Positions 4,664 through 22,050 of a stretch of DNA of 64,000 nt are shown piece after piece (the stretch's first letter is position 1; each line of letters starts with the position of its first letter). The translations under genes and the position numbers were made by a program. Origin of the DNA: Halarcobacter sp. (GTDB taxonomy: Bacteria > Campylobacterota > Campylobacteria > Campylobacterales > Arcobacteraceae); the NCBI GenBank assembly GCA_963676565.1, contig OY781089.1, positions 544,001-608,000 on the forward strand. The letters run 5' to 3'. The notes beneath the pieces are model-generated. The model had not been told where the DNA came from, ran no database searches, and saw only the letters and a program-made list of their open reading frames with translations.

Positions 4664-6319
4664 TTAAAATCTTTTTGGTTTTATGGCTTTTTTTAAATCA
4701 TTAGGGTAGTTTTTTTCTTCTCTAACAGACCAATGATTTTTACTGATTTCTATTTCCCAAAGTGGAATAATACCACCTTGGTAAGGCTTGTAAATAAGCT
4801 CTTTATTAACTGCAATCACTTTATTTAAAGATGGTACTCTTAATGTATAAGCTTCTTCTCTAGCTTGAAATAAAATATTTTTTACAACCTCTTTAAATTC
4901 CTGACTATTTTGTTTTGTAATAAAATATTTTTGAATATATTCTTGCATTTTTTCATCTTTTGGAATTGTTGACCAAACACTATTATTTTCATAAATAAAA
5001 AATACCGTCCAAGGATTTTGATAATACCAGTCATCATCTCCCCAAACTAAAATATCCCACTTTTGTGTATTTTTATTCTTATTGGTATTAAGTAATTGCT
5101 TATATATATCTTTTTCACTTGTCGTGATTTTGTAATTGAATTTAACCCCATATTTTTTTAATTGATATTCAATGCCTTTCAATAAGAATAAAAATCTATC
5201 TTGGGTAAAAATCTCTAATTCTAATCCATTTAATAGTTTATTAATTTGGTTTTGAGATAATTTTTTTTCATTTATTATATATTCATTAGCAATTTCTTCA
5301 ACAACTTTATAATTTATTGATGTCGTAAAAGGGGAAACTCTACCTTCATTTTTATAAACAAAATTAAGTAAATTTTCTTGATTTAAGGCCTGATTTAAAG
5401 CAACTCTTACCTCTTTTTTTAAAAGCTTTTTATTTCCATTTATTAAATTAAAAAAAAGTACAAAATTATCTGTCGATTTTGAAACAATAAGTTTTGAATA
5501 AGGGGATAAAATAATTTCAAGTTTTTTATTAAATGGGATTGGCATTAAATCTAATTTCCCCTCATTTTTTGTAATATCTTCAATTGCTTTATTTATATCA
5601 AGTTGTGTATAAACTGTTATATTTTTTATTTTGGGGTAATTTTTATTCCAATAATAGGGGTTAGCAATTAATTCAATTTTATTTGTTTGTTTATCCCCTA
5701 GTGCATAACCACTTTTTATAATATATGGTCCCATTCCAAATTCCCCTGCAACTTTATTCGCAGTTCCAGTTTCTCCACCAACAGGATTATAGTATTGAAT
5801 ATACTCTTTTGTATAAAAATATACCCTTGCTAGGTCAGTTAAAAACATCTCATACTTTTGTTTTAATACAATTTTTAAATGTCTTTCATCTACTTTAAAA
5901 ACATCAAAATCTATTTTGTTAATATTTGTATATAAAAAAGGATTCTTCTTAAAAAAATTAAGATTATAAATAGCATCTTCTATTGTAAAATCTTCTCCAT
6001 TTTGGAATTTTAGATTTTCCCTAAATTCAAAAATATAAGTAAAATCATCAACTCTTTTATGACTTTTTGCTAAATCATATACCCAACCTTTTTCATTATC
6101 ATAAGATCTAATAAGACCTGCATTTGTAGCTTTTGCAATATATGAATATGGAATTGATGGTAAAAATATATTTATATGGGATTTTGGATGAAGCTTTGAT
6201 GCTATATTTTTTGAAGAGCTATCTTCTCTAAACTCAAACTCTTTTACAACATGAGATGAAGCTTCTAAATAAATAGTTAAAATTAAAATAGAAGATATTA
6301 GTTTAAAGATTTTAAACAA
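4664..6319 (-). CDS. Exported solute-binding protein, family-5 (peptide/nickel ABC type)-like, with no permease nearby
   Basis: Signal peptide; YIFEFRENLKFQNGEDFT, GMGPY, ANPYYW and EVRVALNQALN motifs typical of SBP family 5. Confidence 0.75.
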   Translation of the reverse strand: MFKIFKLISSILILTIYLEASSHVVKEFEFREDSSSKNIASKLHPKSHINIFLPSIPYSYIAKATNAGLIRSYDNEKGWVYDLAKSHKRVDDFTYIFEFRENLKFQNGEDFTIEDAIYNLNFFKKNPFLYTNINKIDFDVFKVDERHLKIVLKQKYEMFLTDLARVYFYTKEYIQYYNPVGGETGTANKVAGEFGMGPYIIKSGYALGDKQTNKIELIANPYYWNKNYPKIKNITVYTQLDINKAIEDITKNEGKLDLMPIPFNKKLEIILSPYSKLIVSKSTDNFVLFFNLINGNKKLLKKEVRVALNQALNQENLLNFVYKNEGRVSPFTTSINYKVVEEIANEYIINEKKLSQNQINKLLNGLELEIFTQDRFLFLLKGIEYQLKKYGVKFNYKITTSEKDIYKQLLNTNKNKNTQKWDILVWGDDDWYYQNPWTVFFIYENNSVWSTIPKDEKMQEYIQKYFITKQNSQEFKEVVKNILFQAREEAYTLRVPSLNKVIAVNKELIYKPYQGGIIPLWEIEISKNHWSVREEKNYPNDLKKAIKPKRF

Positions 6320-10134: not shown

Positions 10135-11292
10135 ATGAAAAGATTAAATTTAGGTTTATCTTTTGTTGCAGCATTATCAATTTATAGTACTGCAAACGCT
10201 CAAAGTTTGGCTGATGCTTTGACAAATGGAAAAATAAGTGGTGAAGTTACAACTACTTATGAAAATAGAGATTTTGATATAGATTCTGGGACTTACTACA
10301 GAAGCAGCGCTTATTCTGTTGGCTCATTTGCATTAAAATATGAAACAAATATTTGGAATGATTTTGCATTAACTTCAAAATTTAGAGCTTATGCAACTCT
10401 ATTTGAAGATGATGATAATTCAAATACAGGAACTGGAAATGGAGATGCATCTGGAAGATTTTATGAAACTGGAACTAATAAAAATATTGATATTGAAGAA
10501 CTGTTTTTATCATATGAACCAAATGATAATTTTTCAATAAAAGCCGGTAGACAATTTATCTCATCATATTGGATAAATAAGACAAATGATGCAATTAAAA
10601 TTGATGCAAATATTGAAAATACTTCACTAGAAGCAATTTGGACACTAAGAAATGGTAGAGTTTATGGAAGGGATTATAGACCTGTAAGCAAAGTAAATAG
10701 TGATGATGGAGTTTTTCAAATAGCTTTAAATCATAAGTTTAATAATATATTTAGCCTTAGTGCCTATGATAGAATTGAACCAAATGTAAGAGATATTATG
10801 GGAGCAAAAGCTGATGCTAAATTAGGTGATTTTTCTTTTGGAATTCACTATGCTTCAAGTAAAGAGGATGATTCAACAATAAAAGATTCTAACTTAATTC
10901 ATTTAACTGCAAGCACTACAATATTAGGATTTACTCCATATGCTGGTTTTATTAAAGTAGATGAAGAGGCAGCTTTCCCAGGTTGGACAAGTAGTGGCGA
11001 GACAATTGATCCGATGGAAGAAGGGGATTATATATATGAAAAAGATGCTCAAACTTTATATTTAGGTGTTAATAAATCATTTGGAGAATTAAGTTCTACA
11101 TTATTATATGGACAAACTGACTATTTATCTGGAATTGATAAAAGAAAAGTAAAAGAAACAACATTATGGCTTGCTTATCCAATAACAAAAAAATTAAATG
11201 CAAACCTTGGTTTAACTAATGTAAATGAAGATGAAAATTCAACTGCTAGCAATTTAAATCAAATTAACTTTACATTATCATACTCTTTTTAA
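10135..11292 (+). CDS. Outer-membrane porin (OprD/Campylobacterota MOMP-like)
   Basis: Signal peptide, SLADALTNGK..G N-terminus, IKAGRQ motif, amphipathic strands, C-terminal Phe. Confidence 0.8.
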   Translation: MKRLNLGLSFVAALSIYSTANAQSLADALTNGKISGEVTTTYENRDFDIDSGTYYRSSAYSVGSFALKYETNIWNDFALTSKFRAYATLFEDDDNSNTGTGNGDASGRFYETGTNKNIDIEELFLSYEPNDNFSIKAGRQFISSYWINKTNDAIKIDANIENTSLEAIWTLRNGRVYGRDYRPVSKVNSDDGVFQIALNHKFNNIFSLSAYDRIEPNVRDIMGAKADAKLGDFSFGIHYASSKEDDSTIKDSNLIHLTASTTILGFTPYAGFIKVDEEAAFPGWTSSGETIDPMEEGDYIYEKDAQTLYLGVNKSFGELSSTLLYGQTDYLSGIDKRKVKETTLWLAYPITKKLNANLGLTNVNEDENSTASNLNQINFTLSYSF

Positions 11293-17085: not shown

Positions 17086-17185
17086 TTTTTTCACATTTTC
17101 CTTTTTTTTCATTTCACATATAAAATGTACTTAATAATGGTATTAATTCCATAAATTTTCACTTAAAGAGAAAAAGTTATTCACA
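17079..17185. promoter_or_regulatory. oriC1-like cluster of co-oriented DnaA boxes
   Basis: TTTTCAC (17079), TTTTTCACA (17087), CATTTCACA (17110), ATTTTCACT (17155), TTATTCACA (17177), all in the same orientation upstream of ruvC. Confidence 0.7.
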
Positions 17186-17376
17186 TAACAATAATATATA
17201 GAAAAAAATATATAAACAATAAAATTACATAGATAAATATAAGTAAATAATTATAAATCATATAATAAAATAAAAAAATAAATGATTTATAGATAATTTT
17301 TATTTTTATTTAAGTTAAGTAAGGCAATAATAATGTAAGTAATTTAATTACTTAATTTTTTTATAAGGAAAGCGGA

Positions 17377-17616
17377 ATGTTAGGATCTTTATTAGGTGGT
17401 TTATTAACTCCTGTGATCGGTTTAGTAGGTGGATTAATCTCAACTGTTGTTGATTTAGTTGGTGGATTAGTTGGTACAGTTGTAGGACTAGTTGGTGGTC
17501 TTTTAGGTGCTGTTACTGGTATCGTATCTGACGTAGTTGACTCTATTAGCATTGACGTTGATGCAGACGTAAATGTAGACGTTAACGGTGTTGACGATTG
17601 CGGAACTTGCTGCTAA
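17377..17616 (+). CDS. 79-aa Gly/Val/Leu-rich 11-residue-repeat peptide with acidic tail and terminal CGTCC; probable T1SS substrate
   Basis: AAGGA RBS at 17365; GG at residues 7, 18, 29 and 40; downstream hairpin; first gene of the T1SS cassette. Confidence 0.8.
   Translation: MLGSLLGGLLTPVIGLVGGLISTVVDLVGGLVGTVVGLVGGLLGAVTGIVSDVVDSISIDVDADVNVDVNGVDDCGTCC
17389..17520 (+). repeat. Four degenerate 33-bp tandem repeats encoding the 11-aa units
   Basis: Units start at 17389 TTATTAGGTGGT, 17422 TTAGTAGGTGGA, 17455 TTAGTTGGTGGA, 17488 CTAGTTGGTGGT. Confidence 0.85.
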
Positions 17617-17621
17617 TTATT

Positions 17622-17647
17622 TGTAAGTAGGTTTTAACCTACTTACA
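17622..17647 (+). terminator. Perfect hairpin without U-tract (partial terminator or mRNA stabiliser)
   Basis: TGTAAGTAGG-TTTTAA-CCTACTTACA, 5 nt after the peptide stop codon. Confidence 0.65.
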
Positions 17648-17677
17648 TCTCACTTAACTCTCTAATTAAGGTTTTCT

Positions 17678-19378
17678 TTGTCTTCAGAACACAAATTTTC
17701 AGAATTGAAATCTACACTTAAAAAAAATAAAAAAACGTTTTTAATTGTGGGTTTATTTAGCTTTTTAACTAACATTTTAATGTTAGTACCGCCTATTTAC
17801 ATGTTACAAATCTATGACAGAGTTATAAAAAGTAATAACGAAAACACACTTTTTGTACTTACTTTTATGATAGTTATCCTATTTATTACAATGGCACTAC
17901 TTGAGATAGTTCGTTCTCAAATACTTATAAAAATTGGTAGTAGTATAGATAATGCAATAAGTAATAGAATTTTTGATTCACTATTTCAACTAGAGCTTAT
18001 TGATCCCAAAAGTGCCAATTCATCATATTTAGATTATTTAACTAGAATAAGACAATTTATGACAGGGAAAAGTATTTTTGCTGTTTTTGATGCACCTTGG
18101 ATTACTATTTATGTGATTATTCTATTTCTTTTTCACACTGCCTTTGGAGTTTTTGCAATTATCGTGATACTTATACTATTAGTTGTAACTGTAATGAATG
18201 AAGTTGCAACATCACAAAATTTAAATGAAGCAAGTAAAAATAATATTGCATCAAATATATATATTGATGCCTCTTTAAAAAATGCAGCAGTTATTAATTC
18301 TATGGGGATGAGGGAAAATATAAGAAAAATATGGCATAAAAAATATTATGGTTTTTTAAACTTACAAAATGATGCAAGTTATAGTGCTAGTATTTGGATT
18401 AATATCTCTAAAAGTATTAGACTTATGGCCCAATCCCTTACCCTTGGTATTGGTGCTTATCTAGCAATTGGATATGAAGTTACACCAGGGACTATGATTG
18501 CAGCTTCGATAATAATGAGTAGAGCCCTATCTCCAATCGATTTAATAATTTCTGGATGGAAAGGTTTTATTGCTTACAGAACAAGTCATAAAAGAATTGA
18601 TGAATTATTAAATAAATTTCCAAAAAAAAAGAAAACTATATCTTTAAAAATTACAAATGCAGAACTTGTACTTGAAAATATAGTTGTAACTCCCCCTATG
18701 ACAAAAAATGAAACAATAAAAGGTATCTCTTTAAAAATAAAGTCTGGTAATGTTGTAGCTGTAATAGGAAAAAGTGGTGCAGGAAAATCAACTTTAATAA
18801 AAGGTATTTTAAATATTTGGCCTCTATCTGGGGGAAAAGTTAAAATCGATGGTGTTGATGTTTCAATGTTTGATAAAGTACAAATAGGTCCTCAAATTGG
18901 TTATCTTCCTCAAGACATTGAACTATTTGAAGGAACAATTAGTGAAAATATCTGTAGATTTCAAGAGCTAGATTCAGAAAAAATTGTTTCAGCTGCAAAA
19001 AAAGCTGGCGTACACGATTTAATATTGAAATTTCCTAAAGGTTATGAAACAAAGATTACTAATTCAGGGGATAGTTTATCTGGTGGACAAAAACAAAGAA
19101 TTGGCTTAGCAAGAGCAATTTATGATAATCCAAGTCTTGTGATACTAGATGAACCTAATTCAAACCTTGATAAAGAGGGTGAACAAGCTTTATTAAACAG
19201 TATAAAAAGTTTAAAAGAGAATAACACAACGGTGATAATAATTACCCATAAAGATAATATCTTAGATATTACAGATAAAGTTCTTTTGATTGAAAATGGT
19301 TTATTAAAAGATTATGGTAATACCCAAGAAGTTCTTAATAAAAATCAATTTTTTAAAGTAGACAATGATAATGTATAA
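17678..19378 (+). CDS. Type I secretion ABC permease/ATPase, PrtD/AprD type (no C39 peptidase domain)
   Basis: NILMLVPPIYMLQIYDRV, FDAPW, Walker A GKSGAGKS, LSGGQKQR, LDEPNSNLD; TTG start. Confidence 0.92.
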   Translation: MSSEHKFSELKSTLKKNKKTFLIVGLFSFLTNILMLVPPIYMLQIYDRVIKSNNENTLFVLTFMIVILFITMALLEIVRSQILIKIGSSIDNAISNRIFDSLFQLELIDPKSANSSYLDYLTRIRQFMTGKSIFAVFDAPWITIYVIILFLFHTAFGVFAIIVILILLVVTVMNEVATSQNLNEASKNNIASNIYIDASLKNAAVINSMGMRENIRKIWHKKYYGFLNLQNDASYSASIWINISKSIRLMAQSLTLGIGAYLAIGYEVTPGTMIAASIIMSRALSPIDLIISGWKGFIAYRTSHKRIDELLNKFPKKKKTISLKITNAELVLENIVVTPPMTKNETIKGISLKIKSGNVVAVIGKSGAGKSTLIKGILNIWPLSGGKVKIDGVDVSMFDKVQIGPQIGYLPQDIELFEGTISENICRFQELDSEKIVSAAKKAGVHDLILKFPKGYETKITNSGDSLSGGQKQRIGLARAIYDNPSLVILDEPNSNLDKEGEQALLNSIKSLKENNTTVIIITHKDNILDITDKVLLIENGLLKDYGNTQEVLNKNQFFKVDNDNV

Positions 19379-20654
19379 AGCTCCCAATGATGATTCATCT
19401 AAAATAGCTAAATTTGGTTTTAGTGTTGTAATAGTTGTGTTTATAATATTTGGAGGATGGGCAACTTTTGCTCCCCTTGCTATTAATGTAACTGCACTTG
19501 GTAAAGTATCTGCTGGATTAAATAAGAAAAAAATTCAAAGTATTGAAAGTGGTATAATCAAAACAATTTATGTAAATGATGGTGATTATGTAAAAAAAGG
19601 TCAACTATTAATTGAATTAGATGATACCCAATCAAAATCAGAATTAGATACTCAATTATTCCAATACCAAACACTATTAGCCCTAAAATCGAGACTTTTA
19701 GCACAACAAAATGGTAAAAAGACAATCACATTTGATGAGGGTGTGAAAAATAAAAAACTTATCGCTGAACAGACAGATTTATTTAATAGCACCATAGAAT
19801 CAATTAAAAAAAATAAACAAATATTAAATAAACAAGTATCACAGTTAAAAAAACGTATTGAAGCTATAAACTTCAAATTAAAAAGTAATACTTATATAAA
19901 ATCATCAATCGATGAAGAGATTGCAGAATTAGAAAAACTATATGCAAAAAAATTGATTAATAAAGTAGATTTAAGAAAATTTAAAAGGGAAGCATCCCAA
20001 CTAAGTGCTGAAATAATCAATAATGAAAAAGAGAAAACTGAATTAAAAGAGAAAATAAATGAATTATCTACAAAAATAGTACTACTTTTAAATGATTTCA
20101 AAAAAGATACTTTAGAGGAATTAACTTCTGCAACATCAAAAATCAATACTGTAAAATTAAAAATAGATTCATTAAGAAATAAATTAAATAAAACAAAAAT
20201 CTATGCACCATCTAATGGTTATATAGTAGGTGTATCAGATTATACACAAGACTCTATTATAAAAGCTGGTGCTGATATTATGGAGATTGTTCCAAAAGAT
20301 GCAGACCTTATAATTGAAGGTGCTATTAAATCCACAGATATAGATAAAGTAAAAATAGGATTAGAGGCAAATGTAGTTTTTTCTGCATACAACACCCAAA
20401 AATCTCATAAAATTCATGCAATTGTAACTTATATTTCTGCTGATACTCTTTATGATAAACAAAACCAAGAGTTCTATTATGAGATTAAATTAAAACTAAG
20501 CAAAGAGGGTAAAAAAGAGATTAAAAAATATAACTTTAATTTAGTTACAGGAATGCCTGCAGAAATAATGGTAAAAACTGGATATAGAACTGTTTTAAGT
20601 TATATGTTAAAACCTTTATTAGACAGATTTAATAGGAGTTTAAATGAAGAATAA
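19365..20654 (+). CDS. Type I secretion membrane fusion protein (HlyD/PrtE family)
   Basis: One TM, V.DGD.VKKGQ.L motif, long coiled coil, GMPAE...G.RTVLSY..KP C-terminus. Confidence 0.92.
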   Translation: MIMYKAPNDDSSKIAKFGFSVVIVVFIIFGGWATFAPLAINVTALGKVSAGLNKKKIQSIESGIIKTIYVNDGDYVKKGQLLIELDDTQSKSELDTQLFQYQTLLALKSRLLAQQNGKKTITFDEGVKNKKLIAEQTDLFNSTIESIKKNKQILNKQVSQLKKRIEAINFKLKSNTYIKSSIDEEIAELEKLYAKKLINKVDLRKFKREASQLSAEIINNEKEKTELKEKINELSTKIVLLLNDFKKDTLEELTSATSKINTVKLKIDSLRNKLNKTKIYAPSNGYIVGVSDYTQDSIIKAGADIMEIVPKDADLIIEGAIKSTDIDKVKIGLEANVVFSAYNTQKSHKIHAIVTYISADTLYDKQNQEFYYEIKLKLSKEGKKEIKKYNFNLVTGMPAEIMVKTGYRTVLSYMLKPLLDRFNRSLNEE

Positions 20655-21978
20655 CTTATATTTAATAAGTTTTTTACTTCTTTTTATTCCATTTAAAATA
20701 TATGCATTAGAGACTTTAAAATTTTCAAAAGCATATGAATTATCTTTGCAAAATTCTAAAAGAATACAATCTTTAGAATATAAATTAAAAGCAAATCATG
20801 AGAATCTGAATCAGGTTAGATCTATGATGTTACCTGAGGTTAATTTTTATGGATCATACACCCAAAATAATTATAAGGATATCCCTGTAAGTAATATATT
20901 TAAAGTAGATATAAAACAAAAAGTTAAAAACTATAATATTATTTTAAAACAATCCCTTTTTGATAGAAATCTTGCTTCAAAAATGGATATTGAAAAATCT
21001 AAATATGAATCTTATAGAAATGATTTAGATATAGAAAAACAAAAATTAGCAAAAGAGCTTTTAGATATATATTTAGCTCTTATAAAATCAAAAAATAAGA
21101 TAACAATGTTATCAAAATTTAAAGAGTACTTGGACTCTAAAAAAGAGCTTTTAAAGACTAGATATGAGATGGACTTATCCACAATTTCGGAGCTTATAAC
21201 TGTTGAATCAGATTTTAACCAAACTAACATTGACTTAGAAAAAGAGAAAGTTTTATTTAAAGTAAATAAAGAAAAACTAATAAGCTATATGGGAGAGGGA
21301 CTTGATTTTGAAATACCAGGATTAGATGATATTGTATTTACCTCTGATAATCTAAAAAAGATTAGAAGAAATTTAGTAAAAATTGATGAAATATATTCAA
21401 ATTTACAAGTTGATAAACTTGAGAATATTATGCAAATGCATAAGCATGAATTAGAAGATGCACAAAATAGTCATCTGCCAAAACTAAGTTTAAATCTTAA
21501 ATATACAAAAAATGTATCTGTAGAAAATAGTTATACTTCAGATTCTAGTTATAAAGAAAATAGAGAATTTTCTATAAATCTTTTAATTCCTTTGTATAAA
21601 GGGGGATATTATACATCATTGGAGAGAGCTTCAAAACTAAATATCAAGTCTTCACAGAAAGATATCGAAGCTTTACTTGATGATTTAAAACTCCAATACA
21701 AAGAAACTCGTGCAAATATAAACTCTGCAATTAGATCTATTTCTCTTTATGAAAAAGCTTTAGAAGCGGCAGTACTAACAAAAGATATAGTAAACAAAGA
21801 GTTCTCGCACGGTATAAAAAGTATACTCGATGTACAAGAAGCAGAGTATAAAATAACGCAAATAAAAGATAAATCTATTGACAATGTCACAACCTTAGTT
21901 GACAACTATTTAGCCTTTCTAACACTAACAAACCATTTTGATGCACTTGAAGTAATTGATTCTATAATTAAAAATTAA
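20644..21978 (+). CDS. TolC-family outer-membrane channel
   Basis: Signal peptide; two LP.(V/L) repeat halves; IPLYKGG; G.KS.LDV motif. Confidence 0.88.
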   Translation: MKNNLYLISFLLLFIPFKIYALETLKFSKAYELSLQNSKRIQSLEYKLKANHENLNQVRSMMLPEVNFYGSYTQNNYKDIPVSNIFKVDIKQKVKNYNIILKQSLFDRNLASKMDIEKSKYESYRNDLDIEKQKLAKELLDIYLALIKSKNKITMLSKFKEYLDSKKELLKTRYEMDLSTISELITVESDFNQTNIDLEKEKVLFKVNKEKLISYMGEGLDFEIPGLDDIVFTSDNLKKIRRNLVKIDEIYSNLQVDKLENIMQMHKHELEDAQNSHLPKLSLNLKYTKNVSVENSYTSDSSYKENREFSINLLIPLYKGGYYTSLERASKLNIKSSQKDIEALLDDLKLQYKETRANINSAIRSISLYEKALEAAVLTKDIVNKEFSHGIKSILDVQEAEYKITQIKDKSIDNVTTLVDNYLAFLTLTNHFDALEVIDSIIKN

Positions 21979-22050
21979 TATTTAATATTTTTAAATTTAT
22001 ATTAATTTAGATATAATCTTTAGAATTTATATACAAAGAGTACGGTTTTA

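Follow-up and report, generated by a model that had tools for sequence, protein, structure and literature searches.

Type I secretion systems (T1SS) have been divided by the cargo they carry: in the available part of PMC8277102, small peptides with a leader are exported by transporters with a C39 domain, large RTX proteins by transporters with a CLD, and mid-sized proteins with a C-terminal signal by systems of the PrtD/HasD kind. The cargos named there for this last group, class 3, are whole proteins, i.e. proteases, a lipase and the haemophore HasA. Among the small exported peptides, CdzC and CdzD of Caulobacter are contact-dependent glycine-zipper bacteriocins with an immunity gene, cdzI, and Cdz-like peptides are defined as having 60–151 residues, an N-terminal leader ending in G[G/A/S] and a T1SS within 10 kb (PMC5380434, the part available). 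Class II microcins need a double-glycine (GG) leader, a C39 peptidase-containing ATP-binding cassette (ABC) transporter (PCAT) and an adjacent immunity gene, according to the accessible text of PMC13188072. Here we describe a module of four genes in a stretch of 64,000 nucleotides from Halarcobacter sp. (contig OY781089.1, positions 544,001 to 608,000; hereafter the window), where a gene for a leaderless glycine-zipper peptide of 79 residues stands at the head of the genes for a PrtD-type T1SS. We lean towards the view that this is a 'signal-swapped' glycine-zipper peptide, which would be exported unprocessed through its dedicated class-3 T1SS by means of a C-terminal signal and then associate with membranes or with itself.

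With its 79 residues the peptide lies within the range of Cdz-like lengths, it has glycine-zipper motifs (GxxxGxxxG starting at residues 29, 33 and 40), and the T1SS genes follow directly downstream, within 10 kb. The leader is lacking, the peptide starts with MLGSLLGG and the 17-residue leader has no counterpart in it. The ABC protein is of the PrtD type. The C-terminal region of the peptide is charged and polar and makes up about 40% of it (31 residues); the available part of PMC5380434 sets no limit to the length of such a region. The small size, the glycine-zipper repeats, the polar or charged C-terminal end and the adjacent T1SS give the peptide a likeness to CdzC and CdzD by description, not by sequence comparison, and the surface aggregation and membrane action of these two serve as a model for how the window peptide may behave. 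The four supplementary files of PMC5380434, in the portion available, hold no mention of Arcobacter, Campylobacter, Epsilonproteobacteria, Azonexus, Dechloromonas or names in Rhodocycl-.

The class II microcins (MccV type and MccAB1; PMC13188072, accessible text) and the window peptide are all smaller than 10 kDa, Gly-rich and hydrophobic. The microcins are exported in one step by a T1SS and are able to self-assemble, which for the window peptide is proposed only, and their leader, C39 PCAT and adjacent immunity gene are all three missing at the window locus. Because the Cdz-like leader is lacking, as well as the leader, PCAT and immunity gene of the microcins, we place the peptide in neither group. 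By analogy, it probably works like Cdz-like peptides or class II microcins once it has been exported.

The export genes have the composition of a class-3 T1SS, as known for PrtD of Aquifex (5L22), HasD and LipB: an ABC protein without C39 or CLD, a membrane-fusion protein (MFP) of the HlyD type and an outer-membrane factor of the TolC type. Class-3 cargos have an uncleaved C-terminal signal, and such a signal is presumed for the window peptide. The class-3 cargo HasA has a size of about 19 kDa. A further parallel is found in the phenol-soluble modulins, leaderless small helical peptides with a dedicated ABC exporter, Pmt, and no separate immunity gene. These are staphylococcal, the exporter belongs to a Gram-positive cell and has no MFP or TolC, and the modulins are shorter than the window peptide; the resemblance is functional only, with no sequence relation, and no membership is claimed. 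The literature searched, which leaves most subscription journals outside, mentions neither the export of a small glycine-zipper or microcin-like peptide through a T1SS of the PrtD/HasD type nor such a system in the Arcobacteraceae.

The peptide is built from MLGS, four exact units of 11 residues (residues 5–48) and a tail of 31 residues with a CGTCC end. A preliminary description of this DNA, made from the letters alone, had pointed out the 11-residue period, the lack of K, R, H, E, Q and aromatic residues, the nine Asp, the preference for GAC and TGC codons and the good ribosome-binding site (RBS), and all of this stood up when it was counted. Shifted by 11 residues, the peptide is identical to itself at 22 of 39 positions, as compared to 0–8 at lags 5, 6, 9, 12 and 13, and a 33-bp tandem array of 2.4 copies with 75% matches lies within the gene at 17421–17498. 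The peptide lacks K, R, H, E, Q, F, W and Y and has 9 Asp and 3 Cys, a grand average of hydropathy (GRAVY) of 1.30 and a best 19-residue hydrophobicity window of 2.06. GAC is used for six of the nine Asp, as compared to a background of 0.11 (binomial P ~1e-4), and TGC for all three Cys (background 0.20, P ~0.008), the background being the 33 long open reading frames (ORFs) of the window. The RBS sequence is found at the identical distance from the start codon in locus L036.

When the peptide is drawn as a helix the glycines fall on one face (R = 0.73 at 11/3 residues per turn), and none of 2000 shuffled sequences had an R as high. The peptides of L036 and L038 give 0.66 and 0.64. An 11-residue repeat keeps a glycine stripe straight over about 45 residues, which is the geometry expected for tight helix-helix packing. 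The GxxxGxxxG motifs contain no Pro and no charge, D26 and P12 being placed outside them. AlphaFold2, with an alignment of six rows, predicted a single helix over residues 2–58 (pLDDT 65–83 in the block) and a tail that is disordered from residue 59. A prediction of four copies as a homo-oligomer scored 0.01 against a mark of 0.42, which speaks neither for nor against self-association.

The small ORF is taken as a real, conserved gene under purifying selection, because its changes are mostly synonymous, the antisense frame decays, the RBS is in place, the codons are biased towards C endings and the distant copies are conserved. The orthologues in the congeners G010 and G014 share 95% and 94% identity with the window peptide, and the peptide of L035 is 96% identical. 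Between the three orthologues of G000, G010 and G014 the synonymous and non-synonymous codon differences number 12/4, 7/5 and 12/1, including a Ser switch between TCA and AGT that takes three base changes, and the dN/dS is 0.13–0.30 as compared to 0.03–0.05 for the adjacent ABC gene. An antisense ORF of 63 residues over the peptide gene is left without its start codon in G010 and G014, and non-synonymous changes make up 9 of 12, 12 of 13 and 7 of 10 of its differing codons. The distant copies, from three genera, have kept the frame, the start, the RBS and a length of 78–79 residues at an identity of 46–51%.

It is very improbable that the ORF is untranslated, or a chance ORF in a leader rich in Gly codons, with a T1SS that is orphan or serves an unlinked protein. 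This would fit the absence of the T1SS-linked peptides from a collection of 5.8 billion proteins, where the sole family member is P0012, so that gene callers may have passed over the ORF. In four RNA runs under the species label of a DNA data set no read mapped; as these runs contain no reads of the organism, they do not bear on expression. The mostly synonymous substitutions with the three-base Ser switch, the conservation of frame, length, start and RBS across three genera, the unconserved antisense frame and the strong C-ending codon bias all argue against it. The absence from the collection suggests, but does not prove, that gene callers miss the T1SS-linked peptide ORFs, possibly systematically. 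An open antisense frame overlaps the peptide ORF in every locus. The synonymous divergence of the three orthologues is lower in the peptide gene, 0.13–0.21, than in the adjacent ABC gene, 0.41–0.48, which could be due to selection for high-expression codons, to constraint at the RNA level or to a recent exchange of the peptide gene.

The ABC protein matches TIGR01842 over residues 14–555 of its 566, so that there is no space for a C39 or CLD domain, and PF03412 (C39) gave no match to it. The closest solved relative is 5L22, Aquifex PrtD, which aligns end to end (E 4.4e-150). The alignments to HlyB and PCAT1 begin only at residues 147 and 163 of these proteins, past their N-terminal CLD and C39 domains, and the ABC protein is therefore assigned to the T1SS class without an N-terminal domain. 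By these alignments the transporter is a bona fide PrtD-type (class-3) T1SS. The MFP gene overlaps the ABC gene by 14 nt and the TolC-like gene overlaps the MFP gene by 11 nt. The TolC-like protein scores 131 bits on TIGR01844, under the cut-off of 225. In the window genome only one PrtD-type ABC was found at E ≤ 1e-80.

When the bacterial family was searched with a profile of six peptides, matches came from 5 of 184 genomes, in 3 of 22 genera, and none came from 377 sampled genomes of other families of the phylum. The gene order ruvC–peptide–ABC–MFP–TolC–dnaA–dnaN is the same in the window, L003, L004, L036 and L082, and the metagenome contig L038 (3.7 kb) carries the peptide, ABC and MFP genes and the start of the TolC gene. 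In every locus found (G000, G010, G014, L036/G499, G586/L082 and L038) the peptide stands beside the same T1SS clade. The ABC proteins linked to the peptide form one clade, 64–97% identical to each other and 44–58% to seven paralogous PrtD-type ABC proteins from the genus and order, and a small Gly-rich hydrophobic ORF is missing from all seven paralogous loci. That the peptide is the dedicated cargo of this T1SS is well supported by this comparison of loci. A scan of the genus with the single peptide gave matches in 17 of 25 genomes at E ≤ 1, and only three of them were real (E ≤ 1e-37); the best matches in the other 14 (E 0.012–0.74) lay inside long ORFs and were dismissed as noise. A match in L037 (Massilia aurea) was rejected as an off-frame artefact in high-GC DNA.

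The preliminary description had further claimed that the peptide heads a complete ABC-MFP-TolC set, that the ABC protein has no C39 peptidase and that no RTX protein, immunity gene or modifying enzyme is adjacent. The matches to TIGR01842, TIGR01843 and PF02321, the extent of the PrtD match and the flanking genes, ruvC upstream and dnaA downstream, agree with it on each point. It had also warned of orthologous T1SSs without the ORF, of a distant RTX cargo and of a match to a characterised family. The orthologous systems have the ORF, as opposed to the paralogous ones; PF00353 finds no RTX protein in the window genome at E ≤ 0.01 (six candidates scored) and no match in the peptide even at E up to 10; and the peptide has no family match in Pfam or NCBIfam. 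When 11 peptides were compared with Pfam at E up to 10 none came above a family cut-off, the best for the window peptide being PF11098 (E 0.23, 11.9 bits, cut-off 26.3). A PDB search with the family profile gave a chance-level match only (E 0.21), and a search of the ESM Atlas with the peptide gave no usable match. It is possible that the window T1SS has a distant cargo that is not an RTX protein.

Relatives of the core were found elsewhere. An exhaustive HMMER search over 1.8 billion representatives gave 11 matches at E ≤ 1e-3, of which three were short (P0001, P0003 and P0012) and eight long; the six long ones that were inspected were all unrelated repeat or low-complexity proteins. Word-indexed searches of the 5.8-billion-protein collection added P0002 and P0013–P0017. 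All in all the short matches comprise the leaderless P0012 and, at E 1e-5 to 1e-2, peptides with a GG leader. This peptide of 87 residues has the N-terminus MxGxLLGGLLTPV, Gly repeats and an acidic tail with the conserved NG, and by these features it is a member of the family. The other eight short relatives have a double-glycine leader of 17 residues, followed by a core with 56–72% identity to the window peptide in the part that aligns. In a joint alignment residue 2 of the window peptide falls on the first residues after the GG site, the sequences are collinear to about residue 48, and near that point the GG-leader peptides end where the acidic tail of the window family begins. A pairwise BLASTP comparison of the window peptide with a GG-leader peptide gave E 3e-7 over 29 residues. 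Given the low complexity of the sequence and the modest E-values, common descent of the window core and the mature GG-leader cores is likely rather than proven.

The neighbourhood of the GG-leader peptides is also similar. These uncharacterised peptides, e.g. P0013 from Azonexus sp. and a pair in locus L069, have the same kind of core, a similar size (62–81 residues) and ABC and HlyD neighbours. They are cleaved and exported by ABC transporters with a C39 peptidase, fall under the Cdz-like definition of PMC5380434 and are akin to class II microcins. L069 was reached by a search of 401 genomes; in this locus, from G211, two GG-leader peptides (81 and 74 residues, at 5113–5358 and 10738–10962) flank an HlyD gene and a gene for an ABC protein of 721 residues with a C39 domain (PF03412, 116.6 bits). 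The pair is possibly a two-peptide system like CdzC and CdzD. The GG-leader peptides have the 17-residue leader to GG, no acidic tail and the 721-residue C39 ABC, whereas the window family has no leader, a tail of about 30 residues, a 566-residue PrtD-type ABC and a TolC of its own. No TolC gene is among the neighbouring ORFs listed for the L069 cluster, and no search directed at TolC was made. Going by the alignment, the same core is found with two different export arrangements. We put the chances at about even that one glycine-zipper core has been fitted to two classes of T1SS, with a GG leader for a C39 transporter in one case and an acidic tail of about 30 residues for a PrtD-type transporter in the other. 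The candidate new secreted-peptide system of the preliminary description thus stands as far as a dedicated T1SS cargo goes, for which the comparative support is good; since its core matches that of the GG-leader glycine-zipper peptides, it is a variant of that kind and not wholly new.

The matching core also bears on whether the peptide is cargo at all. An inner-membrane accessory or regulatory subunit of the T1SS, with a transmembrane hairpin of 48 residues, an acidic tail in the cytoplasm and a larger cargo encoded elsewhere, seems distinctly unlikely to us. The first 50 residues are hydrophobic enough for insertion into a membrane, going by the GRAVY and the best 19-residue window given above, the paralogous systems adjoin large acidic proteins, and the strict co-occurrence with the ABC clade suits a subunit as well as a cargo. 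PrtD-type systems, moreover, usually carry much larger proteins (PMC8277102, available part). Against this, the core matches that of leader-bearing peptides beside peptidase exporters, which are therefore cargo, and the window genome has no RTX protein and no homologue of two large candidate cargos from the paralogous loci. The first position in the operon, the stem-loop behind the gene and the high-expression codons fit a product made in excess. Furthermore, between lineages the peptide is 46–51% identical and the ABC protein 64–75%, and with its higher dN/dS the peptide is the faster evolving, a pattern seen more often in cargos or effectors than in structural subunits.

The reading of the peptide as an exported cargo puts the recognition signal in its tail. 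Counted from residue 51, the tails have a net charge of -6 to -8 across the members (-8 for residues 51–79 of the window peptide), and K, R and H are entirely absent from all family members. An acidic tail with a conserved NG is found in all T1SS-linked members and is absent from the GG-leader relatives. In four of five lineages the tail ends in [IL]-A (EIA, GLA, GLA and SIA). Of 10 large acidic proteins from the neighbourhood of the paralogous T1SSs, with 0–2 K or R in the last 60 residues, five have the same ending. The substrate entry of PrtD has a basic 'bowl', a concave surface, and basic gating residues (PMC8277102, available part), which fits an acidic C-terminal signal.

The preliminary description had treated the CGTCC end as a hallmark of the system, and this did not hold, as it is confined to the window clade: the L036 peptide has one Cys and ends in NCEIA, and those of L038/G586 and P0012 have none. 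The three terminal cysteines are an addition of the window clade, and could cross-link copies of the peptide outside the cell. A Cys near the C-terminus is also found in four of the nine leader-bearing relatives retrieved, so that such a cysteine may have a role, for instance in disulfide linkage. C-terminal cysteines are known from some microcins.

We imagine the export of the peptide as follows. The unfolded peptide would be recognised by its C-terminal tail and threaded, unprocessed and in one step, through the channel formed by ABC, MFP and TolC, while the conserved stem-loop 3' of the peptide gene would hold the peptide mRNA above that of the transporter. Outside the cell, and this is the least certain step, the helix of about 45 residues may pack with its own copies in or on membranes, or aggregate at the cell surface.

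Several observations weigh against this proposal. The AlphaFold2 model of the peptide is weak (mean pLDDT 67, pTM 0.29), and the similarity to the GG-leader peptides, at E-values of only 1e-5 to 1e-2 in low-complexity sequence, might be due to convergence. The family is small, with four sequence types and P0012. The tail of the window clade ends in CGTCC or CGVCC and not in [IL]-A; the extreme C-terminus is said to matter for PrtD-type signals, from work on Erwinia PrtG, and if so the window clade is the odd one. There are three more HlyD-type MFP genes in the window genome. A T-run follows the stem-loop in L036 and L038, G000 has no U-tract there, and a scan for consensus terminators found none at the stem-loop. 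A crude scan for an immunity gene found no free-standing small hydrophobic ORF in the modules of the window, L036 and L082.

The lack of an immunity gene in or beside the module speaks against a bacteriocin that is toxic to its own producer. However, the same kind of scan finds no obvious immunity ORF in L069 either, so its absence does not discriminate. The plain bacteriocin reading is weakened by the missing gene, though the producer could be protected by the exporter or by a gene elsewhere. An antibacterial action that depends on contact or proximity is conceivable, though we would stop short of calling it probable, and a structural, biofilm or surface role is a more doubtful candidate.

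It is unlikely that the exported peptide is purely structural, i.e. a surface coat, a functional amyloid of the biofilm matrix or a surfactant without killing, with a tail that binds divalent cations and with cysteines that lock the assembly in the window clade. Such a role would explain why a self-contained module of four genes has no immunity gene in three genera, and the codon bias suggests that the peptide is abundant. A stretch of the tail where D or N alternates with hydrophobic residues might be arranged as an amphipathic strand. Both amyloid formation and the building of biofilm are known for a class II microcin from Acinetobacter baumannii (PMC13188072, accessible text), and CdzC of Caulobacter forms surface aggregates (PMC5380434, the part available). 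These published examples, MccAB1 and CdzC/D, are however toxins with immunity proteins too, and the patchy, insertion-like spread over 5 of 184 genomes is less usual for core parts of the envelope than for competition genes.

The module is an insertion of about 4.8 kb that splits the spacer between ruvC and dnaA (dnaN follows), at 17113–22050 of the window, 7687–12637 of L036 and 3535–8533 of L082. The first ~95 bp of the spacer upstream of the peptide gene align with the ruvC–dnaA spacer of the congeners G007 and G011, which lack the operon, and the remainder is insert; behind the module the last ~55 bp before dnaA align with the corresponding region of the same two genomes. Since the ancestral spacer is split in this way, the unit that was gained or lost is exactly the four genes and the AT-rich promoter region. 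In 17 of the 25 genomes of the genus ruvC lies directly beside dnaA, about 180 bp apart, and three carry the operon. In three others the record ends at the ruvC–dnaA site, one has two ruvC-like copies elsewhere and one has no ruvC match. The two copies, in G020 (L062/L063), are identical to each other and 74% identical to the window ruvC, and both lie away from dnaA; in G001 (L049) the match to ruvC contains one in-frame TAA. From the sequences, the presence of the module at the same site in three genera could mean that it was lost repeatedly, or else that recombination through the conserved flanks transferred it.

By its position, and by clusters of DnaA-box-like TTATTCAC[AT] that precede the peptide gene in L036 and L038, the ruvC–dnaA spacer is where the replication origin would be expected. 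The DnaA-box motif TTATTCACA with at most one mismatch has 38 matches in the window as compared to 51 expected, so that there is no enrichment in G000, and one exact copy lies at 17177. Weak sigma-70-like matches at 17180–17209 and 17224–17251 are not enriched over shuffled sequences.

Two inverted repeats bracket the peptide cistron and have the words TGTAAGTA...TACTTA in common. They may serve a regulator or the processing of RNA, or may be left over from the insertion. The first, a palindrome shortly before the RBS, does not vary between G000, G010 and G014, and an inverted repeat with changed sequence and one compensatory pair is found at the same place in L036 and L038. A function of the palindrome as an RNA hairpin was rejected, as its folding energy is negligible (-0.5 kcal/mol). 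The second is the stem-loop in the gap between the peptide and ABC genes; none of 200 shuffled sequences folded as well, and all five loci retain it, with one compensatory pair. It is possible that it acts as an attenuator or mRNA stabiliser, which would give a high ratio of peptide to transporter.

The paralogous PrtD loci have a different content. They carry genes for large acidic proteins, which end in ..DDNIA, ..DDYNIA, ..NVQLA or ..NDILA, together with GDP-sugar and glycosyltransferase (sugar-modification) genes. They also carry a conserved protein (Table 1) that starts with MA[RK]K.R.F and ends in ...N..LF.L[AS].[RK][QK]Q, and is encoded directly upstream of the ABC gene in L070–L073. 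By their gene content these loci look like an island for the secretion of an S-layer or glycoprotein.

Table 1. Positions of the features discussed, in window coordinates unless a locus is named.
Feature	Position	Strand	Remarks
AT-rich spacer between ruvC and the peptide gene: left half of the ancestral spacer and inserted promoter region	17113..17376	+	
Palindrome AAGTAATT-T-AATTACTT just 5' of the RBS (candidate operator or hairpin of the 5' untranslated region)	17337..17353	+	
Ribosome-binding site AAGGA	17365..17369	+	7 nt 5' of ATG
Gene for the leaderless glycine-zipper peptide, 79 aa	17377..17616	+	ORF; 7.52 kDa, theoretical pI 4.05
Four 11-residue repeats (residues 5–48), hydrophobic helix with continuous glycine stripe	17389..17520	+	
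Acidic tail, residues 49–79	17521..17613	+	no basic residue; CGTCC end at 17599–17613
Stem-loop between the peptide and ABC genes	17622..17647	+	-16 kcal/mol, z -3.75
T1SS ABC permease/ATPase, PrtD type, 566 aa	17678..19378	+	TIGR01842 683 bits (cut-off 510)
HlyD-family T1SS membrane-fusion protein, 429 aa	19365..20654	+	TIGR01843 336 bits (cut-off 209)
TolC-like outer-membrane factor, 444 aa	20644..21978	+	PF02321 133 bits
Right half of the ancestral ruvC–dnaA spacer, directly 5' of dnaA	21979..22050	+	
Conserved protein of paralogous loci, ~456–474 aa	L070 10695–12065; L071 7515–8888; L072 10752–12131; L073 7585–8955; L074 11662–13086		

If the proposal is true, the window peptide would be the smallest cargo yet proposed for a class-3 T1SS, 7.5 kDa, leaderless and not an RTX protein. 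Its tail would then be a minimal portable C-terminal secretion signal, with bounds set by nature and not by deletion analysis, and the family a natural experiment on the minimal C-terminal T1SS signal, which remains poorly defined. The acidic tag of about 30 residues, together with the compact exporter module of four genes, would also be a candidate secretion tool. Pipelines that mine genomes for microcins or Cdz-like peptides and require a GG leader and a PCAT would miss leaderless peptides linked to PrtD. A peptide of this size that takes the third export route with a core known from the first would, if the proposal is true, blur the division of cargo between the T1SS classes.

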